Assembly: GCA_011620275.1 (NCBI GenBank)
Contig: WOZK01000004.1
Span: forward strand, 21,931 to 85,930
Source: Candidatus Omnitrophota bacterium
Lineage (GTDB): Bacteria; Omnitrophota; Gorgyraeia; Gygaellales; Profunditerraquicolaceae
DNA: 64,000 nt
Direction: 5' to 3'
Both the position numbers and the translations under genes were made by a program. This document shows positions 1 to 55,302 of this stretch, one piece after another. The notes under the pieces were generated by a model that was not told where the DNA came from, ran no database searches, and was given only the letters and a program-made list of their open reading frames with translations. The first letter of the stretch is position 1. Every line of letters begins with the position of its first letter.

Positions 1-187
1 ACGTCTCTGTTATCCGCGTATAATATCCTTCCGACTGGCGGGAAACCCGTTCCAGCAGGCCTTCCGGCGCCTGCCGGTAATAAAGCAGAAAATGACGGCT
101 GCCGGTGGTCAGCCATTTTTCCTCGGCGGAACGCGCCGGGCAGGCGGAAAAAAGCAGGACCGATAAAATTAATATATACTCTTTCAT
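1..187 (-). CDS. 5'-partial (N-terminal part only) hypothetical secreted protein or lipoprotein (MKEYILILSVLLFSAC...). Its ATG overlaps the murG stop (TAATG). The rest of the gene lies beyond the window edge.
   Basis: Minus-strand translation from 187 gives a Met, a hydrophobic signal peptide and a lipobox-like LFSAC. It is translationally coupled to murG. The family is not recognised. Confidence 0.3.
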   Translation of the reverse strand, partial: MKEYILILSVLLFSACPARSAEEKWLTTGSRHFLLYYRQAPEGLLERVSRQSEGYYTRITET

Positions 188-1290
188 TAACGGCATGTCA
201 AACTAATTATTTCTTCCGCCAGCAGGCCGGCGGCGTCCCCGCCCGCCCCCGAAGCGGTTTTGCTCCGCCCGCGTCCGAAAAGCGCTTTTTCCAGAATCCT
301 GCGCAGGGCTTCCGGAGAGACCTCGGCGTCGGCAATCACCTCCGCCATGCCTGACCGCTTGAGGACCCCGGCATTGGCGTCCTGATGCTTGCCGGCGAAC
401 GGATAAGGAATAATGACCGCCGGTATTTCGTAATAAATTATCTCGCTGACCGTCATCGCCCCGGCGCGCGAGATTATCAGGTCGGCCGCGCTGTAGGCGT
501 ATTCCATCGAAGCCAGGAATTCGAACACCCTGGCATCCGCCCCGCATCCGGCATAAGCCTCCTTGACCGCGCGGTAATCTCTGCTCCCGGTCAAATGTAT
601 TATCTGTAATTTGTCGCGCTCTTCCAATAGGCTCACGGCGCGCACGAAAGAATCATTTATCCGGGAGCTTCCCTGGCTGCCGCCGGTGACCAGCACCGTG
701 AACTTCCTCGCGTCCATTCCCAAGAACGCCGCGGCTTCTGCCCGCTCCACCTTACGCAGACAGGAACGCAAAGGATTGCCTGTCAACACCGCCTTAGCGC
801 CGGCGCGCCCCAGGCGGCCGATAGTCCCGTCGAAGGAAACCGCGATTCTATCGCATAAATACGAAAGGAATAAGTTAGCTTTCCCCGGAATAACGTTCTG
901 CTCGTGTATAATGGTCCTGATCCCCAGCAGGCGCGCCAGTAATACCATCGGTACGGAACAAACGCTGCCGAATCCGGCGACGACGTCCGGACGGTAATAG
1001 ACCAGCAGAAAAAAGCTCTTTAGAAAGATCATAGGCAGATACAATAAAACGGCATATCCACCCAGGGCCCGGCGCAGCGCCGGCGGCGGATAAGGCAAAG
1101 CGGCGCTCCTCAGTCCGGCGCACTTTCTTTCCGCGGAAGGCAACGCGGCCTTTTCCGGCAAAACCAACACAGCCTCTGTCCCCCGCGCTCCGGCGCAAAG
1201 GCGTTCAATAACGCTTACAGCCGGGAAAATATGCCCTCCGCTCCTGCCGGTAACTATCAACACGCGCCGCGGGCGCCCGCGGTTCATCAC
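187..1290 (-). CDS. murG: UDP-N-acetylglucosamine--N-acetylmuramyl-(pentapeptide) pyrophosphoryl-undecaprenol GlcNAc transferase MurG
   Basis: The N-terminal motif LIVTGRSGGHIFPAVSV matches the GT28 MurG glycine-rich loop. Length is 367 aa. It sits at the end of the dcw cluster. Confidence 0.9.
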   Translation of the reverse strand: MMNRGRPRRVLIVTGRSGGHIFPAVSVIERLCAGARGTEAVLVLPEKAALPSAERKCAGLRSAALPYPPPALRRALGGYAVLLYLPMIFLKSFFLLVYYRPDVVAGFGSVCSVPMVLLARLLGIRTIIHEQNVIPGKANLFLSYLCDRIAVSFDGTIGRLGRAGAKAVLTGNPLRSCLRKVERAEAAAFLGMDARKFTVLVTGGSQGSSRINDSFVRAVSLLEERDKLQIIHLTGSRDYRAVKEAYAGCGADARVFEFLASMEYAYSAADLIISRAGAMTVSEIIYYEIPAVIIPYPFAGKHQDANAGVLKRSGMAEVIADAEVSPEALRRILEKALFGRGRSKTASGAGGDAAGLLAEEIISLTCR

Positions 1291-2381
1291 GGATATTCTC
1301 CGGTCCTGGCGATGTTCATCAGTATCCCCACGGCCACGATATCAAAGATCAAAGAAGACCCTCCGTAGCTTATGAACGGCAACGGCAGTCCTTTTGTCGG
1401 CAGTAGCCCGCAGGAAACCCCGATGTTAATCAACGTCCTGATGCAAAGCAGCGAAACCAGTCCGAGACTGAAGAAATAACTGAACTTATCGGGCGAATTC
1501 TTTATTATCTTGACGCCCTGCAGTATAAATCCCATGAACAAAAGCACCACCCCCACCGTTCCTATAAGGCCGAGTTCCTCTCCGATAATGGAAAAAATAA
1601 AATCCGTGTGAGCGGCCGGGAGATAAAAAAGCTTCTGTTTGGAATGTCCCAGCCCAACCCCGAAAAAACCGCCGGACCCCAGAGCGACCTGCGACTGTAT
1701 GATCTGGAAACCGGTGCCGCGCGGGTCGGCCCAGGGATTGAGGAACGCCAGTATGCGCATCTTACGGTAAGGCACCCGGAAGATCAACAGATAGAGAGCC
1801 GGTATGGACGCCAGAAACAACGATAATAAATAAGATACCCTTGTCCCGGCGACGAAAAGCATGATAAGCACGGTAACAGCCAGCGCCACCACCGTCCCCA
1901 GGTCCGGCTGGGCGAGTATCAACACCACCGTGCAGCCCATTGCCGCCATCGGAGGGAAGAAACCTTTCCAGAACGAACGCAGAAGATTATCCTTGCGAGC
2001 GATAAAATCGGCTATATACGCTATCAGCGCCAGATTGGCCAATTCGGAAGGCTGGAAACTTATAAACCTAAAACGGAACCACCTGCGCGCTCCGGAGACC
2101 TCGCGGCCGAACCCGGGGACCAGCACCAGCACCAGTAACAACAGGCAGACCAGAAGCAGAGGTTTGGAATAACGGGAGAATTTTCGGTAATCGGAGACCA
2201 TGGCCAGAAACGCCAGCAACATCCCGAACAGCAGAAAACAAATGTGCCTCTTCACGAAAAAAAGGCTGTCTTTATACCTGTCCAGCGCGTAGATACTGGA
2301 AGCGCTGTAGATCATGACAACGCCGATGCATATCAAGGCCACCGTCACGGCAAAAAGTGTTATCCTTATATTCCTTATCAT
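1287..2381 (-). CDS. ftsW: SEDS-family peptidoglycan glycosyltransferase FtsW
   Basis: Polytopic membrane protein with conserved FtsW/RodA segments (GSGGFFGVGLGHS..., PAAHTDFIFSIIGEELGLIG). It lies between murD and murG. Confidence 0.88.
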   Translation of the reverse strand: MIRNIRITLFAVTVALICIGVVMIYSASSIYALDRYKDSLFFVKRHICFLLFGMLLAFLAMVSDYRKFSRYSKPLLLVCLLLLVLVLVPGFGREVSGARRWFRFRFISFQPSELANLALIAYIADFIARKDNLLRSFWKGFFPPMAAMGCTVVLILAQPDLGTVVALAVTVLIMLFVAGTRVSYLLSLFLASIPALYLLIFRVPYRKMRILAFLNPWADPRGTGFQIIQSQVALGSGGFFGVGLGHSKQKLFYLPAAHTDFIFSIIGEELGLIGTVGVVLLFMGFILQGVKIIKNSPDKFSYFFSLGLVSLLCIRTLINIGVSCGLLPTKGLPLPFISYGGSSLIFDIVAVGILMNIARTGEYP

Positions 2382-3643
2382 GGCCGTTCCCCCAGCGCGG
2401 AGAACTCCGCCTTGAACGCTCTCCCCCGCTCTTCATAATTGGTAAACATGTCGAAACTGGAGCACATGGGAGACAACAGCACATAATCGCCCGTAGAAGC
2501 TTCCCGGAAGGCCCTTTGCACCGCGTCCGGCAACCCGGCGGCGTATTCCACCGGCACGCAGCCGCCCAGGCAATCCCTTATCTTGTCTTTCGCCTCGCCT
2601 ATCAGCAGCAGCTTTTTGACCTTCCTCTTCGCGGCTTTGGCTATCAACGAATAATCGCATCCCTTGTGCCTGCCTCCGGCGATCAGGAACACCTTCCCCT
2701 TTATGTTGTTCAGGGCCCACAGCGCAGATTCGGCGGTGGTCGCCTTGGAATCATTGATAAACTTTACCCCGCGCTTCTCCCCCACGAATTCGAAACGATG
2801 CTCTATGCCGCGGAAATCTTTAAAGACCTTCGCGCAGAGATCCGGAGTTATCCCGAGCAGTGAAACCGCGGTCTTTACCGCGCTTTGATTCGGATTCAAT
2901 CCTTCTTCCTCGCGGAAATAAACGGTCCTGGAACGCGCCTCTTTTCCCAATCCGCGCAAATACCGGTCCGAAGGATTGAGCAAAAGAAAATCCCCGTCTC
3001 CCTGGTTCAAATAAATGCGTTTCTTCGCCTCGAGGTATTCCCTCATCCCCGGGTACCTGTCGAGATGATTCCTGTTTAAGTTCAATATCACAGCTATCCA
3101 TGGCCTGAAATCGCGTATCGTCTCCAGTTGGAAAGAACTAACCTCCAGACAGACAAAATCTTCGGCGGCCATTTTTTCCACCTCTCCGCAGAAAGGAGTC
3201 CCGATGTTGCCGCAGACAAAAGCTCTTCTCCCGGAAGCCTTTATGACTTCCCCGATAAGAGTGGTAACAGTGGTCTTGCCGCTGGAGCCGGTGACCGCGA
3301 TCACCCGAGACGGGCAAAGCATATACGCGACTTCTATTTCTCCTATCACCGGTATGCCGGCCTGCGCGGCGAAACTGAAAACCTGGCTTTGCGGACCCAC
3401 TCCCGGAGAAACCACTACCATTTCGCTTCCGTCAAGAAATTCACGCGTGTGCCGCCCTAATTCGACCTCGATATCGGAAGAACAAAGTCCGCCCGCCGCC
3501 GTCCTGGTGAGCGTATTGTCGCAGGCGTCGGTCACTCCCACACGCGCGCCTATCCTGTAGAGGAGATTAGCGCAGGCGACGCCTGAACGCGCCAGTCCCG
3601 CGACCACGATCTTCTTCCCTTTGAAAAACTCCCGGTTTTTCAT
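2378..3643 (-). CDS. murD: UDP-N-acetylmuramoylalanine--D-glutamate ligase MurD
   Basis: N-terminal Rossmann motif KKIVVAGLARSG, Mur ligase P-loop GSSGKTT, 421 aa, dcw synteny. Confidence 0.9.
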   Translation of the reverse strand: MKNREFFKGKKIVVAGLARSGVACANLLYRIGARVGVTDACDNTLTRTAAGGLCSSDIEVELGRHTREFLDGSEMVVVSPGVGPQSQVFSFAAQAGIPVIGEIEVAYMLCPSRVIAVTGSSGKTTVTTLIGEVIKASGRRAFVCGNIGTPFCGEVEKMAAEDFVCLEVSSFQLETIRDFRPWIAVILNLNRNHLDRYPGMREYLEAKKRIYLNQGDGDFLLLNPSDRYLRGLGKEARSRTVYFREEEGLNPNQSAVKTAVSLLGITPDLCAKVFKDFRGIEHRFEFVGEKRGVKFINDSKATTAESALWALNNIKGKVFLIAGGRHKGCDYSLIAKAAKRKVKKLLLIGEAKDKIRDCLGGCVPVEYAAGLPDAVQRAFREASTGDYVLLSPMCSSFDMFTNYEERGRAFKAEFSALGERP

Positions 3644-3683
3644 CTCTCGTCTTTCATCCTTGTAAAACAGGTTCTTAATGCTT

Positions 3684-3770
3684 GGAAATCGAAAGTAGAA
3701 AATTGGCCGCCCGCACTGAAGCGTTAGCGGACTCTGTGCGCTGTTTAAGAAACTTATTTAACAGCGCACT
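3684..3770. repeat. ~90-bp intergenic repeat element (family 4) with an internal 11-bp perfect hairpin (GCGCTGTTTAA...TTAAACAGCGC). Copy 1 is in the murD-mraY gap.
   Basis: About 85% identical to the reverse complement of 55215..55302. Core shared string AAATTGRCCGCCCGCACTRAAG..TTAGCGGACTCTGTG. A 16-mer ATCGAAAGTAGAAAAT also recurs near 40170 on the other strand. Confidence 0.6.
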
Positions 3771-4860
3771 ACCTCAACTTCAGCGTTACCAGCGCTAGCA
3801 GCGCCAGAAGTCCGGCAACTATCCAGAAACGCACGATCACCTTGCTCTCCTGCCAGCCGAGAAACTGAAAATGGTGGTGCAGCGGGGCTATCTTGAATAT
3901 GCGTTTGCCGGTCAATTTGAAAGAAGCCACCTGCAGTATCACCGAAAGCGCCTCCATAACAAACACGCCCCCGATGACGATCAACAACAGCTCTTTCTTT
4001 ATCAACAGCGCGACCGTGCCGAGCGCTCCGCCCAGAGCAAGAGATCCCACGTCTCCCATGAATACGGACGCAGGATAACAATTGTACCATAAAAAACCCA
4101 GCCCGGCGCCGAGTATGGCGGAACAAAAGACCGACAGCTCCCCGGCGCCTCTTATGTAGGGAATAAAAAGATAACTGCTGAAACGAATATTGCCCGCGAG
4201 ATAACTCAATACCCCCAGCGCTAAGGCGGCCATGACCACGTTCCCGGAGGCAAGGCCATCCAGCCCGTCGGTCAAATTAACCGCGTTGGAGGAACCGGCG
4301 ATGACCAGCGCGGAGAATAATATATAAAACACGCCCAGGTCTATTGTGATCTCCTTCATAAAGGGAATGTCCAGGGCGGTCCCGTACTGGCCGTCTAAAA
4401 AAATAACGAACCCCGCTATCAACCCTACCGCCAGCTGGCTCGCGAGTTTCTGCGCCGCGCTCAGGCCTTTGGAACGCTTCCTGGCCTGCTTTAGATAATC
4501 GTCCGCGAAACCGGTAAGCCCGAGCCAAAGAGTGACCGTCAAAGCGATAATAATGTTCTTGTTAAGCGCTTCCGACCAGAGCAGCGTGGAAATGAAGACA
4601 GCCGCCAGTATAAATATCCCGCCCATAGTGGGCGTATCCTGTTTGTTTATCTGCAGTTTGTAAAGTTCGAGGCTCTCTTTATTATTGCGGATGTTCTCCC
4701 CTATCTTCTGCCGTCTGAGCATATTTATTATCCGCGGGCCGAGAATCAAACTGAGCAGGAACGCGGTCAAAGCCGCCATCGCCGCCCTGAAAGTGATGTA
4801 ACGGAATACGTTGAAGAACGCTATTTCTCCATGCAGGGGATAAAAAAGGTAGTATAGCAT
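3769..4860 (-). CDS. mraY: Phospho-N-acetylmuramoyl-pentapeptide transferase MraY
   Basis: NLTDGLDGLASG motif and polytopic membrane protein. The likely true start is MLYYLFYPLH at 4860, with a GGAGG SD 5 nt upstream. The ORF-track extension MCPRNKTQ... is read-through of the REP-like repeat cluster. Confidence 0.9.
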   Translation of the reverse strand: MLYYLFYPLHGEIAFFNVFRYITFRAAMAALTAFLLSLILGPRIINMLRRQKIGENIRNNKESLELYKLQINKQDTPTMGGIFILAAVFISTLLWSEALNKNIIIALTVTLWLGLTGFADDYLKQARKRSKGLSAAQKLASQLAVGLIAGFVIFLDGQYGTALDIPFMKEITIDLGVFYILFSALVIAGSSNAVNLTDGLDGLASGNVVMAALALGVLSYLAGNIRFSSYLFIPYIRGAGELSVFCSAILGAGLGFLWYNCYPASVFMGDVGSLALGGALGTVALLIKKELLLIVIGGVFVMEALSVILQVASFKLTGKRIFKIAPLHHHFQFLGWQESKVIVRFWIVAGLLALLALVTLKLR

Positions 4861-4890
4861 AAGCCTCCGTGTAAAAGCTCGTTGCGTCTT

Positions 4891-4980
4891 ATTCCGGGGA
4901 CACATTACTTAATTATACGGGGACACGATACTTTAAAAGTATCGTGTCCCCGGAATTCAAGTATCGTGTCCCCGGAATTC
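4891..4980. repeat. Cluster of four copies of the 23-bp REP-like element in the mraY-murF junction. Two are forward, and two are inverted and tandem. The inner forward and inverted pair form a perfect hairpin (CGGGGACACGATACTT-TAA-AAGTATCGTGTCCCCG).
   Basis: Direct reading gives attccggggacacattacttaat, cggggacacgatactt, aagtatcgtgtccccggaattc and aagtatcgtgtccccggaattc. The last copies encode the final 7 codons (EFRGHDT) and the stop of the murF ORF. Confidence 0.85.
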
Positions 4981-6330
4981 GAACACTTTCTCCATCCGCA
5001 TCCCGCGAGAACCTTTGACCAGCACGAGGTCTCTGCAGGTAACCTTAAGCGTATCGCGCAGGATACCGGCTGCCTGCGCGGAATCGGCGCAGCAGAATAT
5101 CTTCTCCGCCGCGAGTCCCGCATCCCGCGCAGCCCCGGCAGCGACGCTGGCGAGCCCGCCGACAGCCACGAGGACATCGCATACCCCGGCGGCCAGCGCT
5201 CCGGCCAGGCGATGGAACTCACCGGAGGTCGGCCCCAGTTCCAGCATATCCCCCATCACCAGTACTTTTCTGCCTACGGCGGTCATCGTCCCCAAAGCCT
5301 CTACGGCGCGCTCAAACGAAAGCGGATTGGAATTATACGTATCGTCTATGAATACCGTTACATCGCTTTTAAGCAGGCTCATCCTGCCGGCCGGAAAATC
5401 AAAACCGCCTAATTTAGCGCATATCCGATCGTAATCTATACCGAGTATCCTGCCGACTGCGGCCGCGGCCAGGGCGTTATAGACGTTATGCGCCCCTATG
5501 GTCTTCAACCGGCACGGAATTTTCCTCCCGCGCCCAATCAGGAACTCCGCTCCGCGCCGCGTGGTTTTTACTCCGGAAGCGATAAAATCGGCTCCCGGAG
5601 ACATCCCGTAACCGAATGCCCGGCGCCTCTTGATTAGCGGAACCAGCATTTTATCGTCGGCATTAAGTATCGCTACCGCCGGGCGGCGCAAGTATTTTAA
5701 CAGAGACGCCTTCTCTTTAAGGACCCCGCTCAAACTGCCGAAATGTTCCAGGTGAGAAGGCCCTATATTGGTAATAACGGCAATTGTCGGCCTGCAGACC
5801 GCGGCAAGATAAGCGATCTCGCCCGGGTGATTGCTCCCCAGTTCAAAGACGGCCGCCTGGTGCGAGGCCTTCAATTCCAGCAGCGCCAGCGGCATCCCGA
5901 TATGATTATTCCTGGTGCCCCGGTTTTTCAACACCCTGTAACCGGCGGAAAGCGCGCAGGCGATCATATCCTTGGTTGTGGTCTTGCCGTTAGAACCGGT
6001 CACGGCGACCACCGGTATATCAAAACGCATTCTGTGGAAATACGCGATAGCGGAAAGCGCCCTGACCGTGTCTTTTACCACGACCACGGCCGGACCTGAC
6101 GGTATCCCTGAAAGACCGCGCCTTGCCGTCACCAGACAGGCAGCGCCTTTGCGCGCCGCCTCCGCCAGAAAATCATGCCCGTCGAAATGCTCCCCTTTGA
6201 CCGCCACGAAAACCTGGCCCGGCACGACAGAACGGGAATCTATAGAGACACCGAGCATACTCCTCTCAACGCTGCCGGGACGAGCCAACCTTCCACAGGT
6301 AGCCTTTAGGATCTCTGAAAGCGTAAACAT
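4957..6330 (-). CDS. murF: UDP-N-acetylmuramoyl-tripeptide--D-alanyl-D-alanine ligase MurF
   Basis: N-terminus MFTLSEILKA...SIDSRSV.PGQVFVAVKGEHFDGHDF, P-loop VTGSNGKTT, 457 aa. The 3' end runs into the REP-like cluster. Confidence 0.88.
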   Translation of the reverse strand: MFTLSEILKATCGRLARPGSVERSMLGVSIDSRSVVPGQVFVAVKGEHFDGHDFLAEAARKGAACLVTARRGLSGIPSGPAVVVVKDTVRALSAIAYFHRMRFDIPVVAVTGSNGKTTTKDMIACALSAGYRVLKNRGTRNNHIGMPLALLELKASHQAAVFELGSNHPGEIAYLAAVCRPTIAVITNIGPSHLEHFGSLSGVLKEKASLLKYLRRPAVAILNADDKMLVPLIKRRRAFGYGMSPGADFIASGVKTTRRGAEFLIGRGRKIPCRLKTIGAHNVYNALAAAAVGRILGIDYDRICAKLGGFDFPAGRMSLLKSDVTVFIDDTYNSNPLSFERAVEALGTMTAVGRKVLVMGDMLELGPTSGEFHRLAGALAAGVCDVLVAVGGLASVAAGAARDAGLAAEKIFCCADSAQAAGILRDTLKVTCRDLVLVKGSRGMRMEKVFEFRGHDT

Positions 6331-7775
6331 TCCCTCACAACCTCTCTATCGTCGAAATGCAGTTTTTCCGCGCCGATTATCTGGTAATCCTCATGTCCTT
6401 TACCGGCGACCAGCACGATATCCCCGGCCGCTGCCATATCCAAAGCCGCGGCTATCGCTTCTTTCCGGTCGGGCACCACTCGGTAATTATCGCTTTTCAT
6501 ACCCTCTTCTATGGCTGAGATTATCGAAGCCGGACTCTCGGAACGCGGATTATCATTGGTAACCAGCGCGTAGTCGGAAAGCTCCGAGACTATCCCTCCC
6601 ATAAGAGGCCGCTTCTGCCTATCCCTCTCCCCTCCGCATCCGAACACGGTGATGATGCGCCCGGAAGATAATTGTCTGAGCGACGAAAGGACCTTTTCCA
6701 GCGCGTCCGGAGTATGCGCGTAATCCACGTAAACTGAGTAGCCGCGCGGGGAATCAATACGTTCCATTCTCCCGGGGACATAAGAGAAACTCTCCAGCGC
6801 GGTTTTGAGCGTTTTCCTGTCTATGCCGGAACACAAGGCCCAAACGGAAGCCGCCAGCGCGTTGTAAACGTTGTGCCGGCCTACGAGAGCCGTCCGGAAC
6901 GACTCTCCGCAGTCCGCGCCTTGCACCGTGATCCTGAAACTGCTCTCCTGCCCGGAAAGCCGGATGTCCACGGCCCGAAAATCTGAGCCTTCCAGCAGGC
7001 CGTAACCGTTCACCGCGGCCGCGGTCATCCCGCACAGCCTGCGTCCGCGTTCGTCGTCGGTATTTATGACGCAGAACGCCTTACCGGAAAGCCCGGAGAA
7101 CAACAGCGTCTTGGCCCGGAAATATTCTTCTTCCGTTTTATGGTAATCAAGATGATCCCGGGTCAGGTTCGTGAAGACGGCGGAGTGGAATTCCACGCCC
7201 TCCGTCCTGCGTTGATCGAGCGCGTGTGAAGAAACCTCCATAACCGCGTAAGACGCTCCGTTTTCATACATAGACGACAAAAGCCTCTGCAGTTCCACGG
7301 CGCCGGGGGTGGTGTTGGTAGAAGGCAGGACTTCTTCTCCCAGCCTGTAATTCACCGTGCCTATCACGCCGGCCTTTGCCCCGGAACAGGCAATGATATG
7401 CTCCAGCAGATATGTCAGGGTGGTCTTGCCGTTGGTGCCGGTTATACCCGCCACCTTGAGTTTCGAAGAAGGCTCACCATAAAAACGCGACGCCAGCCTG
7501 CCCGCGGCCGTTCTCGGATCTTCCGTTACCAGGCGGGCCACGCCCGCCGGCAGTTCCTCGAGCGCTTTGACATTCCCGGCTACGACGGCCGACGCGCCTT
7601 TAGAGACCGCCTCCGGGATGAACCTGTGCCCGTCCGTTCCGCAGCCGGGCACCGCGATGAAAAGCTCTCTCTTGATAGCGCGCCTGGAGTCCACGCATAT
7701 CCCGCGGATATCGCAGTCCGGACCTTCGTCAATCCTCGATACCGTCGTTCCCGAAATCAACCTGCTTAACTTCAT
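6306..7775 (-). CDS. murE: UDP-N-acetylmuramoyl-L-alanyl-D-glutamate--2,6-diaminopimelate ligase MurE
   Basis: P-loop GITGTNGKTT, 489 aa Mur ligase, dcw synteny between ftsI and murF. Confidence 0.9.
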   Translation of the reverse strand: MKLSRLISGTTVSRIDEGPDCDIRGICVDSRRAIKRELFIAVPGCGTDGHRFIPEAVSKGASAVVAGNVKALEELPAGVARLVTEDPRTAAGRLASRFYGEPSSKLKVAGITGTNGKTTLTYLLEHIIACSGAKAGVIGTVNYRLGEEVLPSTNTTPGAVELQRLLSSMYENGASYAVMEVSSHALDQRRTEGVEFHSAVFTNLTRDHLDYHKTEEEYFRAKTLLFSGLSGKAFCVINTDDERGRRLCGMTAAAVNGYGLLEGSDFRAVDIRLSGQESSFRITVQGADCGESFRTALVGRHNVYNALAASVWALCSGIDRKTLKTALESFSYVPGRMERIDSPRGYSVYVDYAHTPDALEKVLSSLRQLSSGRIITVFGCGGERDRQKRPLMGGIVSELSDYALVTNDNPRSESPASIISAIEEGMKSDNYRVVPDRKEAIAAALDMAAAGDIVLVAGKGHEDYQIIGAEKLHFDDREVVRECLRFQRS

Positions 7776-9477
7776 TTAACTTCCAGACCTCCTCGACCGA
7801 CTGTTTTGTCTTAAGATACCGCAAAGTGTCGGATACCACGTTCCTGAACACCGGGGAAGCGACCACTCCGCCGTAATAATAAGGCCGCGGTTCGTCGAGC
7901 ACTACCGCGACCACCAGCGCCGGTTCCTCGGCCGGCGCGAAGCCGACGAAAGAAGCGGTGAATTTACTGTGAGAATACCTGCCGTCCGGATCCAGCTTCT
8001 GGGCGGTCCCGGTCTTGCCCCCGGCGGTAAACCCCGGGACCTGGGCGAGCTTGCCCGTGCCGTGCTGCACCACTCCGGTGAGTATCTTGCGCATCCTGGC
8101 CGCCGTTTCCGCAGAGATCACCTGCCGGATCGCCTGCGGTTTGAACTCCTGGATTGCCTCACCGTATTTATCCCTCACCTCGCTTACCAGGTAAGGCTTC
8201 ATCAAAGTCCCGCCGTTGGCGATAACCGAAAAAGCGCAGGCCAGTTGCAAAACGGTCACACCGATCTCCTGTCCCATCGGCATCGTGGCTATCGATATCT
8301 TCGACCATTGTCTCGGGTTCTTTGTCACTCCGGAGATCTCTCCGGGGATATCCACTCCGGTCTTGGCGCCGAAACCGAACAGCTTGATATAACGGTAAAA
8401 CTCCGCCGGCCCGAGCTTCTGGGCGATCTTGGAGGTGCCGATGTTGCTCGACTGTTCAATCACCTCGCTGAAAGTCAGCCAACCGTGCGAACGGTGGTCG
8501 TGCAGGACGTGGCTGGCTATGCGGTAGGATCCGTTCTCACAAAAAAACTTCTCGTCCTCCCGGCTTTTCTTTTCCTCCAGCGCCCCGGCAGCCGCGACTA
8601 TCTTGAAGACCGATCCCGGCTCGAACATATCGCATACCGCGCGGTTGCGCCTGCTGTCCTGGGCGGAAGACGAATACTCGTTAAGGTCGAACGTCGGCCG
8701 GTTTGCCATAGCCAGGATCGCCCCGGTATGCGGATTCATCACCACGATACTCCCGCCTTTGGCATTGCTCGATTCGTAAGCCTTCTGGAGTTCTCGTTCG
8801 GCGATGTACTGGATCACGCCGTCGATGGTCATCACTACGTTGTCGCCGTCTTTAGGCAGAACCATGTTTTCCCATATCTCAAGCCGTTTCTGCCTGGCGT
8901 CGCGCAAGAAATAAGCCCAGCCCCCCTCGCCCTTGAGATATTTGTTATATAAAAGTTCGTTCCCCTCCAGCCCGTTATTGTCTATGCCGGCGAACCCTAT
9001 CAGGTGGCTGGACAGGTAACCGTTGGGATAACAGCGTTTACTTTCTTTAACGCAGCCGACACCCTTGATATTAAGCTTCCTCACCTCTTCGCTCTGCTGC
9101 GGCGTCATCTTTCGCTGCAGCCAGATGAAATATTTTTTTCTCCCCAGGCGCTCGCTTAAATAAGAACGTTCTACCCCGAGTATAGGCGCCAGCTGTTTTA
9201 TCGCGCGCTCCTTGTCCGCTGAAGACATCCCCGCAGGCGAGGCGAAGAGCGAATCCGCCGGTATGTTGATGGCCTGCGGCCGCATATTGATGTCGTATAT
9301 CGTCCCGCGGCGCGGTTCGAGCTCGACATAAAGGTTATGTTGTTTACGGGCTATCGAGGCGAGGTATTCCGAGCGGAAGAACTGGATGAACAACAACCGT
9401 GCTACGCAGAGAAAAAAAAATAAGAAAAACAGAAAAAAGACCGCATTAAAGCGGCGGCGGTAGGCGGCTATATACAC
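7729..9477 (-). CDS. ftsI: Peptidoglycan D,D-transpeptidase FtsI (class B PBP)
   Basis: N-terminal membrane anchor, PBP dimerisation region and transpeptidase domain. 582 aa. The apparent start codon is GTG at 9477. Confidence 0.85.
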   Translation of the reverse strand: MYIAAYRRRFNAVFFLFFLFFFLCVARLLFIQFFRSEYLASIARKQHNLYVELEPRRGTIYDINMRPQAINIPADSLFASPAGMSSADKERAIKQLAPILGVERSYLSERLGRKKYFIWLQRKMTPQQSEEVRKLNIKGVGCVKESKRCYPNGYLSSHLIGFAGIDNNGLEGNELLYNKYLKGEGGWAYFLRDARQKRLEIWENMVLPKDGDNVVMTIDGVIQYIAERELQKAYESSNAKGGSIVVMNPHTGAILAMANRPTFDLNEYSSSAQDSRRNRAVCDMFEPGSVFKIVAAAGALEEKKSREDEKFFCENGSYRIASHVLHDHRSHGWLTFSEVIEQSSNIGTSKIAQKLGPAEFYRYIKLFGFGAKTGVDIPGEISGVTKNPRQWSKISIATMPMGQEIGVTVLQLACAFSVIANGGTLMKPYLVSEVRDKYGEAIQEFKPQAIRQVISAETAARMRKILTGVVQHGTGKLAQVPGFTAGGKTGTAQKLDPDGRYSHSKFTASFVGFAPAEEPALVVAVVLDEPRPYYYGGVVASPVFRNVVSDTLRYLKTKQSVEEVWKLNEVKQVDFGNDGIED

Positions 9478-9696
9478 AACTATATAATAAAGATTATACC
9501 GGCGCCGGGTTCTGCACCGCGCCGGTTTACCGGGGAAGGTCCGTTTCCTCTCCTCCAGCCGGTAATCGTCTGATTATCGGAATATCCGCCCGCCAGGCCT
9601 CCCTGGGCCGCGCGGAGAGATATCTGTCCCGGATGTAACCGCGGGATCTTATACAATAATTGCTCCGGCTTGCACTGCCTGCCGCAAAGCGGAAAG

Positions 9697-10065
9697 TCAA
9701 TGCTGGATCGTGTGCGCTTCCGCCTGTCTCTTTATGCTGAATATCCTGGAAGCCAGCGTGAGAACACCGCCCTCTTCCCGTCCGGCCGGCGTTCCGCTCG
9801 CAACGAAGCCCACTTTAACCACCCGGCAGGTATCCGGCATCTGGAACTGATCATCCATAGAGACCTTATTCCCTATCCGTATCAGGGAAGCGCTCTTCTC
9901 TATATTGTAACGCAGGACGTTGTTCTTATCGAGAAGTTCCTGGAAGGCTGATTGTTTCCTCTCACCCTCGTAAGCCAGGCGAAAGATCTCCGCCTGCTGA
10001 TAAACGTAGAGAACGGAAAAGACCGTACCTAACAATATGACGACTATTAATCGCGATATTCTCAT
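9697..10065 (-). CDS. ftsL: Cell division protein FtsL-like (small bitopic membrane protein)
   Basis: 122 aa with an N-terminal TM helix (LIVVILLGTVFSVLYVY). It lies between rsmH and ftsI. The call rests on conserved position and topology. Confidence 0.6.
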   Translation of the reverse strand: MRISRLIVVILLGTVFSVLYVYQQAEIFRLAYEGERKQSAFQELLDKNNVLRYNIEKSASLIRIGNKVSMDDQFQMPDTCRVVKVGFVASGTPAGREEGGVLTLASRIFSIKRQAEAHTIQH

Positions 10066-10066
10066 T

Positions 10067-10990
10067 TTACCGCCTTTCCGCCACCCGCAGCTTGGCGCTG
10101 CGGCTGGGAGGATTATCCTTTATTTCGCAAGTGGTAGGAGTCAAAGGTTTGTGCGTTATTATATCAATTTTCCCCGTCGAAGCAAGCTCCCGGAAAGCCA
10201 GCTTTATCGTCCTGTCTTCCAGAGAATGAAAAGAGATCACGCAGAGCCTGCCGCCCCGCTCAAGCAGGTCCACGGCTTTGTTCACCGCGCTGCCCAGCAC
10301 CTCAAGTTCCCTGTTGACGGCGATTCTCACCGCCTGAAAAGTACGGGTGGCCGGATGCAGACGCTGATGACGGAACCTGCCGGGGATAGCCCGAAGCACG
10401 ATATCGCTTAGCTGGCGCGTCGTGGAGATCGGAGATTTCTGGCGTTCGCGCACCAGCAGACTGGCTATGCGGTTGTGCCACCTCTCCTGCCCGAAATTGC
10501 GCAACAGCGACGATATTTCTTCCTCGTTCAGATTGTTTACCAGGTCGTAAGCCGAAATATAACTATTCCTGTCCAGCCGCATATCTAACGGCCCGTCGTT
10601 CTGAAAGCTGAAACCGCGCTGAGGATTGGAAAGTTGATAGGAAGAAATGCCCAGGTCCATCAGTATCGCGCCTGCTCCGGTCACACCGAAAGAAGCCGCC
10701 ACCTTGTCGATATCGTAAAAATTGCTGTAAGCGAGATCGAAAGAACCGCTGTAAGCCTCCAGCCTTTGTCCGGCTATCCGCAGCGATTCCTCGTCCCTGT
10801 CTATGCCGATCAGCCTCCCTGCCGGCATGATGCGCTCCATCATGGCCAGGCTGTGCCCTGCCGTACCCACGGTGCAATCAATGACGGTCATCCCGGATGC
10901 CGGACGCAAATACTCCAGGACTTCGTTGAGCATAACCGGATGATGAATTACTGGCTCCATAACCTGTTCCTGCATTACGCCTGTGATCAA
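10067..10990 (-). CDS. rsmH: 16S rRNA (cytosine1402-N4)-methyltransferase RsmH (MraW)
   Basis: HHPVMLNEVLEYL...DCTVGTAGHS SAM-methyltransferase motifs, 307 aa, directly downstream of mraZ. Confidence 0.9.
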   Translation of the reverse strand: MITGVMQEQVMEPVIHHPVMLNEVLEYLRPASGMTVIDCTVGTAGHSLAMMERIMPAGRLIGIDRDEESLRIAGQRLEAYSGSFDLAYSNFYDIDKVAASFGVTGAGAILMDLGISSYQLSNPQRGFSFQNDGPLDMRLDRNSYISAYDLVNNLNEEEISSLLRNFGQERWHNRIASLLVRERQKSPISTTRQLSDIVLRAIPGRFRHQRLHPATRTFQAVRIAVNRELEVLGSAVNKAVDLLERGGRLCVISFHSLEDRTIKLAFRELASTGKIDIITHKPLTPTTCEIKDNPPSRSAKLRVAERR

Positions 10991-15324: not shown

Positions 15325-15530
15325 ATTCCGGGGATACGATACTTAATCCCTCGGCAACGGCTACGGTAACCAGCAGAATTCAACCTGTCTTTCCTCCCAA
15401 ATGGATACCACTATTCTTTCCTCCCCAATGGATGCCACCAATCTTTCCTCCCCTCGATGGGGAGGATGAAGGAGGGGTGATAATCTTCCCTATCCTCCGA
15501 TGGGAAAAACGAAGGAGGGATAATATTGAA
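15325..15530. repeat. Composite repeat. One 23-bp REP-like copy (attccggggatacgatacttaat) is followed by a CGGCAACGG..GGTAACC segment and a degenerate tandem array built around the hairpin TCCTCCCC-TCGA-TGGGGAGGA (family 2).
   Basis: Near-identical ~75-bp core (CTTTCCTCCCCTCGATGGGGAGGATGAAGGAGGGGTGATAATCTTCCCT) recurs at 55085..55160, and in reverse orientation at 52080..52160. Confidence 0.7.
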
Positions 15531-15629
15531 GCATCGACGAGACTAAAACAACGGGATCAGAGCCGATAATTGATATTCCTAAACCACGGCTAAAGCATTC
15601 TGAACCCACGCGCGCTAATCATGTATCAA

Positions 15630-22238: not shown

Positions 22239-22370
22239 ATTCCGGGGACACGATACTTAATTCCAGAAAACGATAAAAAACCGTGTTAGATTCCGCCATT
22301 TTCTTGCGTCTATTATAACAAAATAGGATTATAACATAAGTTTCCTGATTCCGGGGACACAATACTTAAT
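22239..22370. repeat. Two direct copies of the 23-bp REP-like element (22239..22261 and 22348..22370) upstream of the RAYT gene
   Basis: attccggggacacgatacttaat and attccggggacacaatacttaat. Confidence 0.85.
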
Positions 22371-22471: not shown

Positions 22472-23083
22472 ATGGCAAGGATAGCGAGATTAGTTATACC
22501 CGGAATTCCTCACCATATTGTTGTACAAAGAGGCAATAGACGTCAAGATGTCTTCTTTAACGACGATGACAGGAGGACTTATCTTAATTATCTAAAAACA
22601 TACGCTATGCCTTCAGGGATAGAATTCCTGTCATATTGTTTAATGGAAAATCACGTGCATATTATTGGTGTCCCGAGTAACAAAGATAGTTTCGCCAACG
22701 GTTTCGGAGAAGCACACCGTAGATATACAAGAATGATTAATTTCAGAAAAGGATGGAGAGGATATTTATGGGAGGGCAGATTCAAATCGTACCCCTTAGA
22801 GGGCACTTATTTATATGCCGCGCTTCGTTATATAGAAATGAATCCTGTAAGGGCAAAAATGGTGAAGAACGCCTGGGACTATCCTTGGTCAAGCGCAAAA
22901 GCACATGTCCTAAACCACACTGACATTTTACTAACCAATAATTGTATCGCTCCGGTAGTGGAGGACTGGAGATCATTTCTTTCTGAAGATGACAAACAAG
23001 ATACCGTCAACTTATTAGAAACGCATTTGATGAGCGGACGGCCGTTGGGAGATAATAAATTTATTGAGAAGTTAAAAAACTAA
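22472..23083 (+). CDS. REP-associated tyrosine transposase (RAYT; IS200/IS605-like Y1 HUH transposase)
   Basis: HUH motif NHVHIIGVP. RAYT signature YIEMNPVRAKMV with catalytic Tyr. N-terminal IPHHIVQRGNRRQDVFF. AGGAGG SD 8 nt upstream. The gene is markedly AT-rich. It is flanked by inverted copies of the 23-bp repeat. Confidence 0.85.
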   Translation: MARIARLVIPGIPHHIVVQRGNRRQDVFFNDDDRRTYLNYLKTYAMPSGIEFLSYCLMENHVHIIGVPSNKDSFANGFGEAHRRYTRMINFRKGWRGYLWEGRFKSYPLEGTYLYAALRYIEMNPVRAKMVKNAWDYPWSSAKAHVLNHTDILLTNNCIAPVVEDWRSFLSEDDKQDTVNLLETHLMSGRPLGDNKFIEKLKN

Positions 23084-23161: not shown

Positions 23162-23184
23162 ATTAAGTATCGTGTCCCCGGAAT
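23162..23184. repeat. 23-bp REP-like element, inverted copy downstream of the RAYT gene
   Basis: attaagtatcgtgtccccggaat. Confidence 0.85.
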
Positions 23185-23194
23185 TACGAGCAAG

Positions 23195-23268
23195 TGCGCC
23201 TGGCAGGACTCGAACCTGCAACGCCCAGCTCCGAAGGCTGGCGCTCTATCCAATTGAGCTACAGGCGC
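23195..23268 (-). tRNA. tRNA-Arg (anticodon TCG)
   Basis: Manual fold gives a 7-bp acceptor stem, a D-arm GTAGCTCAATTGGATAGAGC typical of Arg tRNAs, anticodon loop CTTCGGA and T-arm GGTTCGAGTCC. CCA is not encoded. Confidence 0.8.
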
Positions 23269-23282
23269 GCAAAGAGACTTTA

Positions 23283-32106: not shown

Positions 32107-32301
32107 ATCCGAAGTGAAATTTTATACCTCATACACGTTAACCCCGGCCGCGTCACCGTCGAAAAATACACGGTCGCAACAATTTTTCTCAGTATAACAC
32201 ACCGCATTCAAAAAGCAATAGAAAAATCTCTCCCCGAATTAACTCATATGAAATCTAACCGAAAGTTTTCTATACAGGCAGGTATCGTTGACTCATCAGA
32301 T

Positions 32302-33242
32302 CCCGGGGACACAATACTTAATTATAAGTTTCCTGTAAGTTTTAAATGGGTACGTAGTGTTTATTAAGTCTGGTAAAATCCAAACGGCCGGTTACCAGGA
32401 AAGCGCCGATCCTGAAGTACCGGAAGGTGCTGAAACCTATGGCGTTAGCCTTAGCCGCCTGAATTAAGAAATTAAGTCCTTCAAGGAAACCGTTATCAAT
32501 GTGCGATTTCTTCCACTGCACAACACCTTCCCAGTGAGCTTTAATCGTGCGGGCGGCTTTGTGTCTGTACTTCTTGTTTGCGAACCGTATCAACTGCCGT
32601 GTTGATGATTTTGATGATATGGAACCGGCCAAAGGTAATCTCGGCGTTAGGGAAATTATCCTTAATGCCCTTTATAAAAGCCGGCCACATATCACAACTG
32701 ACATCCGTGACTGCCTGCGGGTTGCCGTTGTGTTCTTTGATATCCTCGGCAAAAGCTTCAACGGTCTTTTGGTCATTGCCTTCGGCGATGAAAACGGTTC
32801 GCTTCTTGAGAAGGTCAACGAACAAGGTAATGTAATCGTGGCCCTTACGCCTTGAAGTCTCATCTATGCCGACGCCTTTAAGATCCCTGTAATCGTTGCC
32901 GGCCAAGGCCAGAGTCACATAACGTTCCAGTATCGCCCAAATCTTGTAATCTGATTCGCCAGTAATCCGGCTGACAGTATGAACCGGCATATGGCCGGCT
33001 AACTGGATAAGCAAAATGAAAAATCGCGCCTTTGTGAAAATCAATGTGAATATCCAGCCGCTTGCTTTCGGCGCTAAACTGGATATCTTTGATATACCAC
33101 GGTTCTTGAATATTTAGAGCAAGCTCAAACAGCTGTTGGGTAAACATTGGCATCCTCCTGGTTTATTGTTCCTACAGGATTATACCAAATTACCCATTCG
33201 AATTTCAGTAGACTGTTAAATTAAGTATTGTGTCCCCGGAAT
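32302..33242. mobile_element. Degenerate ISL3-family element, bounded at both ends by inverted copies of the 23-bp repeat (32302..32322 and 33220..33242)
   Basis: The left end is cccggggacacaatacttaat. The right end is attaagtattgtgtccccggaat. The internal transposase reading frame is frameshifted. The element is AT-rich. Confidence 0.6.
32342..33153 (-). pseudogene. ISL3-family transposase split over three frames (at least two frameshifts)
   Basis: The frames contain ISL3-like segments (HTH-like VSRITGESDYKIWAILERY; DDE core GVGIDETSRRKGHDYITLFVDL, CDMWPAFIKGIKDNFPNAEITFGRFHIIK; and a C-terminal NGFLEGLNFLIQAAKANAIGFSTF). Confidence 0.7.
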
Positions 33243-33249
33243 TACGGAA

Positions 33250-34596
33250 TCAGAACTCTACCCTGGCGTAATTCTCAAAACGGGTATATTCTTTTATGAA
33301 GGAGAGTTTAACCGACCCGACCGGGCCGTTACGTTGTTTGGCGACTATGATTTCGGCGATACCTTGATTTTCCGGGGTGGGATTATAATATTCTTCCCTG
33401 AGAATAAGCACCACCACGTCGGCGTCCTGTTCAATGGCTCCCGATTCCCTCAAATCCGATAACTGCGGACGGTGATCGTCGCGACGCTCCACGGCGCGCG
33501 AAAGCTGGCTGATGGCGATAACCGGCACGTTAAGCTCCCTGGCCAGCGCCTTCAAGGAACGCGATATTTCGGATATCTCCTGCTGTCGGCTTTCGTCCGA
33601 ACCGCTGCCGCTGCCGCGCATCAACTGCAGGTAATCCAAAATTATAAACTGGATATCGTGGTGAGATTTGAGCCTGCGCGCCTTGGCGCGCAGTTCCATT
33701 ACCGATATGCCCGGGGTATCATCGATATAGATGGGTGCCTCGGAAAGCCGTCCGGCGGCCGCAGTGAGTTTGGGCCAGTCGGACGCGGAAAGATAACCGG
33801 TCCTGACCTTGTGGGCATCGACCCTGGCGTGAGAACAAAGCATCCTTTGCACCAACTGTTCTTTGGACATTTCCAGGCTGAATATGGCGGTGGGCACCTT
33901 GGCGGATACCCCGGCGTATTCGGCCATGGACAAAGCCAAGGCGCTCTTACCCATGGAAGGACGCGCCGCCACAATCACCAGGTCGGACGCCTGCATACCG
34001 GAAGTTATCGTGTCGAAATCCAGGAAACCGGTGGGGATACCGGTGACATGCGCCTTCTTCTGGTAGAGACGATCGATATTCTCTATACTGTCCTTGATAA
34101 TCTCTTTCAGGTGGACGGCGCTTCCCCGGTGGCGGCGGTCGCTCACTTCGAAGATGAGTTTCTCGGCGTTATCGACCACCTCGCGGACGTTCCCCTCGTT
34201 CTCGTAACAGGAAGAGATGATGCGAGTGGCGCTGCTGATTAGCCCGCGCAGAACGCTTTTATCGCGGACTATCCCGCTGTAATGACGGATGTTGGCCGCG
34301 CTCGGCACCGCGTTGACCATAGACGCCAGATAACTGGCTCCGCCGGTCTCCTCGAGTATCCCCTTGCGGCGCAGTTCGTCTGTCAGCGTGATAAGATCAA
34401 CCGCCTTGTTGACGTTGAAAAGATCCAGTATGGTCTCGAATATCTTGCGGTGGGAATCTTTATAGAAACATTCTTTGCCGAGGTGCTCCGCGGCGACCGC
34501 TATCGCCTCTTCATCCATAAGCATGGAGCCGATTACCGCCATTTCGGCGTCCAGGTTCTGCGGCGGGAGCTTCTCGATGGAACTTTCCGTAGGCAT
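33250..34596 (-). CDS. dnaB: Replicative DNA helicase DnaB
   Basis: Walker A GARPSMGKSALAL, 448 aa, directly downstream of rplI. Confidence 0.92.
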   Translation of the reverse strand: MPTESSIEKLPPQNLDAEMAVIGSMLMDEEAIAVAAEHLGKECFYKDSHRKIFETILDLFNVNKAVDLITLTDELRRKGILEETGGASYLASMVNAVPSAANIRHYSGIVRDKSVLRGLISSATRIISSCYENEGNVREVVDNAEKLIFEVSDRRHRGSAVHLKEIIKDSIENIDRLYQKKAHVTGIPTGFLDFDTITSGMQASDLVIVAARPSMGKSALALSMAEYAGVSAKVPTAIFSLEMSKEQLVQRMLCSHARVDAHKVRTGYLSASDWPKLTAAAGRLSEAPIYIDDTPGISVMELRAKARRLKSHHDIQFIILDYLQLMRGSGSGSDESRQQEISEISRSLKALARELNVPVIAISQLSRAVERRDDHRPQLSDLRESGAIEQDADVVVLILREEYYNPTPENQGIAEIIVAKQRNGPVGSVKLSFIKEYTRFENYARVEF

Positions 34597-44598: not shown

Positions 44599-44664
44599 AA
44601 TCCGGGGACACTATACTTAATTATTCCCAAAACCACAGACATTTAAGTATTGTGTCCCCGGAAT
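44599..44664. repeat. REPIN-like inverted doublet of the 23-bp element (forward 44599..44621, 19-bp spacer, inverted 44641..44664)
   Basis: aatccggggacactatacttaat...atttaagtattgtgtccccggaat, which can form a ~23-bp stem hairpin. Confidence 0.85.
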
Positions 44665-51875: not shown

Positions 51876-52253
51876 CCAAGAACCGAAACGGGCTTAGTTA
51901 CCGTTGCCGATATTAAAACTCGTTTATCGTTTATGATGCCCTTGTCTTAGTCTTTATTTCCCTTCCCCTGGTGGGGGAGCAATAAGGACGATGATACTCT
52001 TCCTGCATCTTCCCCATCGAGGGGAAGAAAGATATGAATAATCTATTGGTTCGGGAGGGGATTGATTATCACCCCTCTAAAGCCTCCTTAGTTGTCACCC
52101 CTCCTCTATCCTCCTTAGTTACCACCCCTCCTTCATCCTCCCCATCGAGGGGAGGAAATACAGATTGAACCCTATTGGGTACCGTAGCCGAGAACCAAAA
52201 CGGACTTTGTTACCGTAACCGTTACCGAATTAAGTATCGTGTTCCCGGAATTC
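51876..52253. repeat. Composite repeat region upstream of the por operon. It has two ~45-bp GGTTACCGTAACC-type direct repeats, a G4/C4 hairpin tandem array (family 2, reverse orientation), and a terminal 23-bp REP-like copy at 52228..52253.
   Basis: The hairpins are TCCCC-TGGT-GGGGGA, CTTCCCC-ATCGA-GGGGAAG, GAGGGG-N11-CCCCTC and CCTCCCC-ATCGA-GGGGAGG. It has the same module order as 15325..15530, but inverted. Confidence 0.7.
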
Positions 52254-55030: not shown

Positions 55031-55302
55031 AATTATTCGGCAACGGTCACGGTTACCAACAGACCCCTACCTGTCTTTCCTCCCGAATGGGCACCTCCAA
55101 TCTTTCCTCCCCTCGATGGGGAGGATGAAGGAGGGGTGATAATCTTCCCTGTCATCCGATGGAGAGGATGAAGAAGGGGTGGTAATCAAGGATGATTTAG
55201 GAGGGGTGACAATCAGTGCGCTGTTCAGTAAGTTTTTTAGACAGCTCACAGAGTCCGCTAAAACTTTAGTGCGGGCGGTCAAATTTCGACTTTCGATTTT
55301 TA
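55031..55302. repeat. Adjacent copies of repeat family 2 (55031..55215) and of the ~90-bp family 4 element (55215..55302, inverted relative to 3684..3770)
   Basis: The family-2 part has a CGGCAACGGTCACGGTTACC leader, then CTTTCCTCCCCTCGATGGGGAGGATGAAGGAGGGGTGATAATC, then degenerate GGAGGGGTGRYAATC units. The family-4 part is ~85% identical to copy 1. Confidence 0.7.

Follow-up and report, generated by a model that had tools for sequence, protein, structure and literature searches.

Upstream of mraY in the division and cell wall (dcw) cluster of a Candidatus Omnitrophota bacterium, the gap behind murF is occupied by four copies of a short repeat, the first of which is read through by murF itself. 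The cluster lies within the 64,000-nucleotide stretch of contig WOZK01000004.1 analysed here (the window), where it runs on the minus strand from mraZ to murG. The identities of the dcw genes were taken from the open reading frame (ORF) list together with the Pfam labels on two identical contigs (L112 and L113) and two syntenic relatives (L001 and L002). The array at the murF–mraY junction, the wider repeat family and the Y1 tyrosine-transposase gene found with that family, about 17 kb from the junction, are described below; coordinates are collected in Table 1.

A nested repeat array at the murF–mraY junction

Read along the minus strand from 4980 to 4891, the array consists of GAATTCCGGGGACACGATACTT, a second GAATTCCGGGGACACGATACTT, TTAA, AGTATCGTGTCCCCG, TATAATT and AAGTAATGTGTCCCCGGAAT in direct succession. 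The sequence ...AAAGTGTTC precedes it, and AAGACGCAACGAGCTTTTACACGGAGGCTT and the ATG of mraY follow it. The original prediction had placed four repeat copies between mraY and murF, two forward and two inverted, and a repeat search returned exactly these. The unit had been taken for a 23-mer, but the tandem copies match exactly over 22 nt, and the unit of the family as a whole measures ∼25–26 nt. A perfect 17-nt palindrome (4918–4934/4936–4952) gives a 16-bp stem with a 3-nt loop, which agrees with the perfect hairpin of 16 bp that had been predicted.

The translation of murF ends ...KVFEFRGHDT (...MEKVFEFRGHDT) directly before the stop codon. The segment EFRGHDT is encoded by copy 1, and the TGA stop (4957–4959) is composed of the last T of copy 1 and the GA of copy 2; the proposal that the repeat supplies the last seven codons and the stop of murF was borne out. 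The mraY start is at 4860, which yields the 363-residue protein present on public contigs, and the extension of the ORF to 4905 is a spurious 5′ extension. The conserved mraY ribosome-binding site (ACGGAGGC) and the ATG sit ∼30 nt downstream of the array.

The repeat family and the associated Y1 transposase gene

The family unit of ∼25 nt, AATTCCGGGGACAC[G/A]ATACTTAATT, is present in ∼15 copies at nine loci in the window, a density of about one copy per 4 kb. When up to three mismatches were allowed, the 22-mer gave 11 matches in 64 kb against 0.00 expected, and CGGGGACAC occurs exactly 14 times against 0.43 expected. Nearly all copies in the window contain the core GGGGACAC, with one-base variants at 15325 (GGGGATAC) and 52232 (GGGAACAC). 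The copies are located upstream of, downstream of and between genes in both orientations; on a crude gene map (83% coding), the murF tail is the sole copy within confident coding sequence. A single unit, AATTCCGGGGACACAATACTTAATT, is non-palindromic, forms no stem (0 kcal/mol) and contains neither GTAG nor CGTC. Two facing units, a forward unit followed by its reverse complement (F...rcF), form a perfect hairpin of −28.2 kcal/mol as DNA.

The nature of the repeats had been missed by the original prediction: they probably form the terminal inverted repeats (TIRs) of an element with a Y1 tyrosine transposase, which is encoded by the gene at 22472–23083. The 203-residue product of this gene scores 36.9 bits against PF01797 (cutoff 23), and its translation contains the HuH motif as HVH and the Y---NP motif as YIEMNP. 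Its sole PDB match is the E. coli TnpA-REP structure 4ER8 (E 4e-5), in an alignment spanning both motifs. When the Y1 protein from a TIR-adjoining locus of a Pseudomonadota metagenome-assembled genome (MAG) was used as a tblastn query, one homologue was found in the window, and it is this gene (46% identity, E 3e-61). At a subset of the loci that carry the 21-mer core (see below), a convergent gene has its stop codon directly against the TTAA end of the unit, and its product ends ...TGRPLG...KKPGPK..N. This gene encodes an IS200-like Y1 transposase, with a PF01797 match and a sub-threshold NCBIfam match to the REP-associated tyrosine transposase (RAYT; REP, repetitive extragenic palindrome).

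The gene is enclosed by the repeats in a fixed layout, F–gene–rcF, both in the window (F at 22239 and 22348, rcF at 23165) and in L007, L028 and L100. To avoid ascertainment bias, four homologues on long contigs were picked by protein similarity alone (L117; L119, in the complete genome CP070837; L121; L123), and 4/4 showed the same layout, with F 38–135 nt upstream of the gene and rcF at or over its stop codon. The TIR of L123 has the variant inner sequence ATTCCGGGGACAGCTACCATAATT, also written GGGGACAGCTACC. At E ≤ 1e-10 the Y1 family has over 6000 members, which are typically 219–223 residues long. PF01797 is the sole Pfam domain in the window protein and in all 120 top homologues (202–248 residues), and 53% of these 120 end in an asparagine directly before the stop, that is, in the AAT-TAA of the TIR.

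In the window gene, a −1 frameshift in an A6 run (23073–23078) removes ∼20 C-terminal residues; one added A restores a protein of 224 residues that ends ...ELLNN, with its TAA stop within the downstream TIR. An error of sequencing, genuine decay of the gene or programmed frameshifting could each account for it. In the intact elements of L119 (1462–1500), L121 (1463–1500) and L123 (1440–1500), the upstream TIR is immediately followed by a near-consensus TTGACx-N17-TATAAT/TATACT sequence, which ends ∼7–8 nt before the Y1 ATG. This suggests that the Y1 mRNA of such intact elements may be leaderless or have a very short leader.

Genes flanked in this manner have been described. RAYT-like genes bounded by terminal inverted repeats instead of REP hairpins were named TIRtrons, and their transposases TIRYT (Di Nocera 2013; PMC3733652). 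The four copies at the murF–mraY junction are very probably the TIRs of such a TIRtron, in which the RAYT-like Y1 (HUH) gene (TIRYT) at 22472–23083 is bordered by inverted TIRs carrying GGGGWSAS. The window contains each of the sequence-level traits of a TIRYT system: the Y1 gene, inverted flanking TIRs, the GGGGWSAS motif and dispersed copies. By analogy with the TnpA of IS200/IS608 and E. coli TnpA-REP, the Y1 enzyme would act on single-stranded hairpin DNA and spread units or doublets. The transposase gene, and in one instance an insertion sequence (IS), is located in the 'loop' of a facing TIR pair.

History of the junction in related genomes

In the relative L125 (MraY 96% identical), the junction reads GTGTTT GAATTCCGGGGACACAATACTTAATT, a 22-nt spacer and AATTAAGTATTGTGTCCCCGGAAT AAGA...; its MurF ends EFRGHNT and terminates at the unit's own TAA. 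In L001 (94.7% nucleotide identity) the contig stops within the first copy. No TIR is present at the junction in L114, L115/L116 and L002/L003 (MurF 67–69% identical, ∼75% nucleotide identity), whose MurF proteins end VFEET, VFDEARGMKHEARRR and VFEETRGTKHEA..., or in L126 (MraY 88% identical), whose MurF ends VFDEARGTQLQKQSTDHSR. Most Omnitrophota MurF proteins end 0–5 residues past the conserved MEEVF. Where the TIR is absent, MurF has other tails, some of them longer and unrelated, and L125, which has the doublet, has EFRGHNT, so the MurF tail in the window is repeat-derived and not ancestral, in line with the original prediction.

Relatives without the TIR at the murF–mraY junction have a gap of 59–122 nt there, with the mraY ribosome-binding site conserved. 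Their mraY–murD gap measures 85–620 nt, and the gaps are filled with other repeats; the TIR family itself is also found in the mraY–murD gap of L002, L003, L115 and L126. The claim that the dcw cluster has been invaded therefore needs qualification: it is indeed colonised by dispersed repeats, but it was not compact beforehand, since the relatives are already gapped. The dcw cluster of this Omnitrophota clade tolerates repeats at several junctions.

On this comparison, one doublet entered the murF–mraY gap, which existed already, in the ancestor shared by the ∼95% group, and landed directly after the last conserved MurF residues (...KVF-E). With that landing, the left unit replaced a short variable MurF tail by (E)FRGHNT and supplied the stop. 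In the window lineage, a second doublet now occupies the former 22-nt spacer, giving the nested order F-F-rcF-rcF, and the four-copy array is recent. Copy 1 in the window carries the same G variant as the second doublet, and the copy number has changed from two to four within ∼5% divergence.

Another repeat family also writes MurF C-termini in this clade. Short repeats of the GAGGCACGAAG/CATGAGGCATGAAG type are found in the murF tail and in both gaps (L002 11350–11500; L115 4350–4400 and 5560–5620; L126 420–540), and they extend MurF with ...RGTKHEARG....

The unit across bacterial phyla

A search for the 21-mer core TTCCGGGGACAC[A/G]ATACTTAA in one genome per GTDB species returned at least 108 stretches. 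Among the matches listed, the exact 21-mer occurs in more than 10 phyla, while the proteins of the associated Y1 clade are ∼46–70% identical. The hosts listed include Omnitrophota, Gamma- and Alphaproteobacteria, Desulfobacterota, Planctomycetota, Elusimicrobiota, Clostridia, Desantisbacteria, Nitrospirota, Spirochaetota, Saccharibacteria, WOR-3 and Bdellovibrionales. Because several matches are on megabase contigs or complete chromosomes (OZ252091.1, OZ242265.1), bin contamination is not the explanation. The flanks are unrelated between loci, and conservation is at background two bases outside the core (AA-core-TT); these sharp edges define the unit as a discrete ∼25-mer.

Among the cross-phylum instances listed, 59% are solo units, 26% inverted pairs and 15% tandem copies. 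Facing pairs within 200 nt are exclusively of one polarity, with 31 F..rcF (12–123 nt between the matched cores) and 0 rcF..F. In a gammaproteobacterial MAG (L027), a 263-residue ORF unrelated to MurF ends ...QFRGHNT at a TIR, and hence the same TIR frame gives C-terminal tails to other genes in other phyla.

It is conceivable, if less likely than not, that the 25-nt unit serves one ∼220-residue Y1 clade as a cis-element of almost invariant sequence and passes horizontally between bacteria, also as a sharp-edged solo unit. If true, this would contrast with the current view of REPIN-RAYT systems as lineage-specific and vertically inherited. Few pieces of mobile DNA would then be smaller or more broadly distributed than this unit, which could rewrite the C-terminus of an essential gene, as in murF. 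The exactness of the 21-mer across more than 10 phyla, as opposed to the divergence of the proteins, was not found stated in PMC3733652 or PMC6006769 and might surprise specialists.

Predicted RNA structure of the junction

The junction RNA (140 nt) folds into a nested hairpin of −72.2 kcal/mol (z = −9.7); the array alone accounts for −62.1 kcal/mol and the inner stem for −28.7 kcal/mol. The UGA stop of murF is located 4 nt before the inner 16-bp stem, and the sequence after the stem is GGAAUAAGACGCAAC, without a U-tract. An intrinsic (Rho-independent) terminator was rejected for the hairpin, given the missing U-tract and the lack of a terminator-like call. An internal promoter was considered for the TATAAT in the spacer before copy 4, but the scan accepted no −35 element to go with it. 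At the gathering threshold, Rfam matched two tRNAs only; at E ≤ 1, the sole hit in the region 3600–9800 was a sub-threshold one of the long hairpin to the mir-54 microRNA precursor model (32.9 bits, cutoff 70), which was dismissed because any long hairpin may match in this way.

In E. coli operons, the mRNA upstream of a REP hairpin is stabilised, and translation is depressed when the hairpin lies close to a stop codon. In the polycistronic dcw mRNA, the array could likewise keep 3′ exonucleases from the mRNA upstream of it, and ribosomes might be slowed where murF ends. Ribosomes translating the tail would melt the outer stem, and those terminating at the UGA would face the inner stem. A REP-like barrier to exonucleases is plausible by this analogy, and an attenuator or RNA-processing role is plausible as well.

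Other features of the window

Two further dcw spacers had been listed with the array as signs of invasion. The element of ∼90 bp reported in the murD–mraY gap is a genuine second dispersed family ('family-4'): the ∼83-nt element has an 87% copy at 55217–55299 in the window, homologues in other Omnitrophota loci (L089, L038, L073 and L105) and a copy inside the ftsL–ftsI spacer of L002 (∼6555–6650). The ftsL–ftsI spacer of the window exists as described, at 219 nt, but it is ancestral and unique, contains no repeat and does not belong to the invasion. Its conservation in relatives (96% in L001, ∼71% in L002/L003), together with the lack of repeats, indicates that it is not an insertion. Its fold is only moderately better than that of shuffled sequence (z = −2.5), and no Rfam family was found in it. 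Candidate roles for it within the dcw operon are those of a conserved leader, an internal promoter region and a small RNA.

Several other sequences adjoin the TIR copies. Intergenic repeats at 15351–15534 versus 55037–55193, and also at 51996–52030/52124–52158 (82–84% identical, with CTTTCCTCCCC motifs), lie next to TIRs, and the 3′ end of the TIR is often followed by a CGGTAACGGxTACGGTAAC-like motif (window copies 15325+ and 52232−; L033 and L047), which suggests composite elements at these copies. An IS remnant occupies the loop of the split doublet (Table 1), an arrangement reminiscent of the IS elements that target REPs. In L028 (Ca. Undivivens industriae), in a region syntenic with window 23268–23281, a ∼46-nt tandem array of ∼4 copies of GCGCATAATTAATGTGTACTTGCGCAATTCCTCATAAGCGCAAGGT (4750–5035) adjoins the tRNA-Arg; it is not in the window.

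Table 1. Positions of the genes, repeat copies and spacers discussed in the text (window coordinates).
Feature	Position	Strand	Remarks
murG	187-1290	-	ORF list; Pfam labels on identical and syntenic contigs
ftsW	1287-2381	-	
murD	2378-3643	-	
Second dispersed repeat ('family-4')	3686-3768	-	fills mraY-murD gap; hairpin GTGCGCTGTT...AACAGCGCAC begins at mraY stop codon
mraY	3769-4860	-	363 aa
TIR copy 4	4891-4910	+	inverted, 2 mismatches; outer stem with copy 1; orthologous to right-hand copy of L125 doublet
TIR copy 3	4918-4933	+	inverted, truncated (without AATTC end); perfect complement of copy 2; 3' arm of inner 16-bp stem
TIR copy 2	4937-4958	-	perfect tandem duplicate of copy 1; 5' arm of inner hairpin
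TIR copy 1	4959-4980	-	GAATTCCGGGGACACGATACTT; encodes MurF tail EFRGHDT and first stop-codon base
murF (UDP-MurNAc-tripeptide--D-Ala-D-Ala ligase)	4957-6330	-	457 aa; conserved domain ends ...MEKVF
murE	6306-7775	-	
ftsI	7729-9477	-	
ftsL-ftsI spacer	9478-9696	-	219 nt; unique in window
ftsL	9697-10065	-	
rsmH	10067-10990	-	
mraZ	from 10992	-	
Solo TIR	15325-15344	+	intergenic
TIR, distal, upstream of Y1 gene	22239-22258	+	7 nt from start of divergent small ORF
TIR, proximal, upstream of Y1 gene	22348-22367	+	104 nt before ATG; same orientation as gene
Y1 (IS200-like, RAYT/TIRYT-type) tyrosine-transposase gene	22472-23083	+	203 aa as read
TIR downstream of Y1 gene	23165-23184	-	inverted relative to upstream copies; 9 nt from 3' end of tRNA-Arg (23194-23268, -)
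TIR, left half of split doublet	32300-32319	+	doublet interrupted by ISL3 transposase remnant
ISL3 remnant	32320-33222	-	in loop of TIR doublet; ORF pieces 33153-32878, 33044-32541, 32632-32342
TIR, right half of split doublet	33223-33242	-	7 nt past stop of 448-aa ORF 33250-34596 (read as dnaB-like from sequence)
TIR doublet	44599-44618 F, 44645-44664 inverted		26-nt spacer; between two co-directional genes; RNA hairpin -29.7 kcal/mol
Solo TIR	52232-52251	-	intergenic
TIR cluster	61340-61349 partial F, 61348-61367 F, 61394-61413 inverted		ends ~12 nt before ATG of plus-strand ORF

Discussion

The system in the window shares with TIRtrons a Y1/HUH gene bordered by inverted, non-REP repeats, the core GGGGACAC, a TIR that runs over the 3′ end of the gene, and copies that occur as singles, dimers and clusters. 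Many of the TIRs described carry GGGGWSAS, and 'moderately abundant' TIR families were found as singles, dimers and clusters (Di Nocera 2013; PMC3733652). It differs in its host, since the Omnitrophota lay outside the 2013 sample, in its high density, in the exact 21-mer shared by more than 10 phyla, and in that an essential dcw gene here takes its C-terminus from a copy. In the searchable literature, TIRYT appears only in that paper and in Quentin 2018 (PMC6006769), and a literature search with the repeat string in both orientations gave no match.

There is also a resemblance to REP/REPIN-RAYT systems (Nunvar 2010; Bertels & Rainey 2011; 4ER8). It extends to the single Y1 gene, the inverted short extragenic repeats and the doublet hairpins, with REPIN-like inverted doublets at 44599/44645 and 61348/61394 and in the nested array 4891–4980, and to the placement of copies between co-directional or convergent genes, within operons and at times over the ends of ORFs. 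However, the unit here is non-palindromic and has no GTAG/CGTC tag, the protein scores below the NCBIfam RAYT equivalog cutoff, and the unit is identical across phyla, whereas REPs are lineage-specific and vertically inherited. A canonical REP/RAYT system was therefore rejected, on the non-palindromic unit and the score of 53.5 against 80 bits.

Quentin 2018 (PMC6006769) gave the motif as GGGG[AT][CG]A[CG] and tentatively equated TIRYT with TnpAY1 subclass 2.1, whose members are among the longest TnpAY1 and have a C-terminal helix-turn-helix (HTH) domain (Bac_DnaA_C, HTH_23 or HTH_28). The window protein has the class-2 signature Y---NP, the HuH motif and the GGGG[AT][CG]A[CG] repeat. In contrast to that subclass, the Y1 clade here has ∼220 residues, PF01797 only and a conserved ...GRPLG...LTGR.L.KQKPGPK tail, and assignment to subclass 2.1 is not supported by Pfam, which finds no HTH (the authors' own hidden Markov models were not used). 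As an RNA element, the array is comparable to the REP hairpins of E. coli operons (e.g. malE–malF), which are likewise stable, intercistronic, free of a U-tract and a few nucleotides from the upstream stop; here, the stop and seven codons are inside the repeat itself.

Several observations weigh against the TIRtron assignment or the activities attached to it. The window protein reaches 53.5 bits against the NCBIfam RAYT model NF047646 (cutoff 80), and the L007 homologue is also below the cutoff at 53.7 bits. Pfam detects no HTH domain in the window protein or the 120 listed homologues. The window enzyme may be inactive through its frameshift, unless this is a read error. The 59% of units that are solo form no hairpin alone, which is awkward for a strictly hairpin-dependent mechanism; they would be decayed or half-deleted doublets or a sign of another recognition mode, and this is the weakest link of the proposed mechanism. 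Mobility of the unit is suggested by its adjacency to the gene, its copy number and the differences between relatives, and those between ∼95% relatives are the indirect basis of the view that the Y1 protein would cleave or move the TIRs. As for a regulatory role, the scan of 4880–4985 returned neither a terminator-like site nor a sigma-70-like promoter, and any regulatory effect of the hairpin is speculative.

Other explanations of the array and of the family were considered. Short-read assemblers often break or mis-join at repeats, and the contig of the relative L001 does end in the first copy. That the four-copy palindromic array is an assembly artefact is nevertheless barely credible: an independent Logan assembly (L112/L113, a 37-kb contig) reproduces the array with 100% identity, which in L112 extends over 7.4 kb, a repeat unit is shorter than the k-mers in common use, and L125 crosses the orthologous doublet cleanly. 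The repeats might also be the ends or miniature derivatives of a DDE-type IS rather than of the Y1 gene, since the space between the inverted copies at 32300 and 33223 is exactly taken up by a frameshifted ISL3 transposase (PF01610, E 2e-31). But in L105, a ∼93% relative, the same site holds just the doublet, its halves 7 nt apart, which indicates that ISL3 inserted into a pre-existing doublet; the remnant was rejected as the owner of the repeats on this ground. Together with the absence of an ISL3 homologue at other copies, the repeat flanking 8/8 Y1 loci examined and the common position of the Y1 stop inside the repeat, this makes a DDE origin very unlikely. It is highly improbable that the motif serves the host in cis, for instance as the operator of a transcription factor or in DNA uptake, and is not mobile DNA. 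A short, highly conserved intergenic motif with some copies just upstream of start codons could give that impression; however, its exactness in more than 10 phyla amid unrelated flanks, its sharp edges, its physical coupling to a transposase gene, its indifference to position and orientation relative to genes, and the variation of copy number and arrangement among ∼95% relatives all speak for mobile DNA.

A more serious alternative accepts the mobile origin as incidental and regards the array as primarily a selected regulator of the dcw operon, an attenuator, RNase processing site or mRNA stabiliser that uncouples mraZ–murF from mraY–murG. The great stability of the nested hairpin, the closeness of the murF stop to the inner stem, which terminating ribosomes must open, and the presence of some repeat at the murF–mraY and mraY–murD junctions of every relative examined are consistent with this proposal. 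Yet the occupants of these junctions vary by lineage (TIR doublet, GAGGCACGAAG-type repeats, family-4), as expected of permissive gaps. The hairpin has no U-tract or terminator call, strong termination ahead of essential genes is unlikely, and the copy number has doubled between close relatives. Primary selection as a regulator is thus rather unlikely, and the TIRtron assignment is preferred. Under this assignment, the MurF tail would be functionally neutral.

The odd MurF C-terminus and the palindromes in an essential operon that is usually compact are thus best read as the footprints of a mobile repeat family; neither a novel means of regulation nor faulty annotation is needed to explain them. 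The murF–mraY and mraY–murD junctions in this Omnitrophota clade repeatedly accept insertions while the operon stays unbroken. The element type is real but essentially known, if obscure. The window offers a compact natural TIRtron system, in which the gene and its flanking TIRs are accompanied by solo, doublet, tandem and nested copies, by an IS in a doublet and by a recent change from two to four copies between close relatives. The identity of the 21-mer across phyla provides a ready substrate for the question of how a Y1 enzyme recognises a non-palindromic end.

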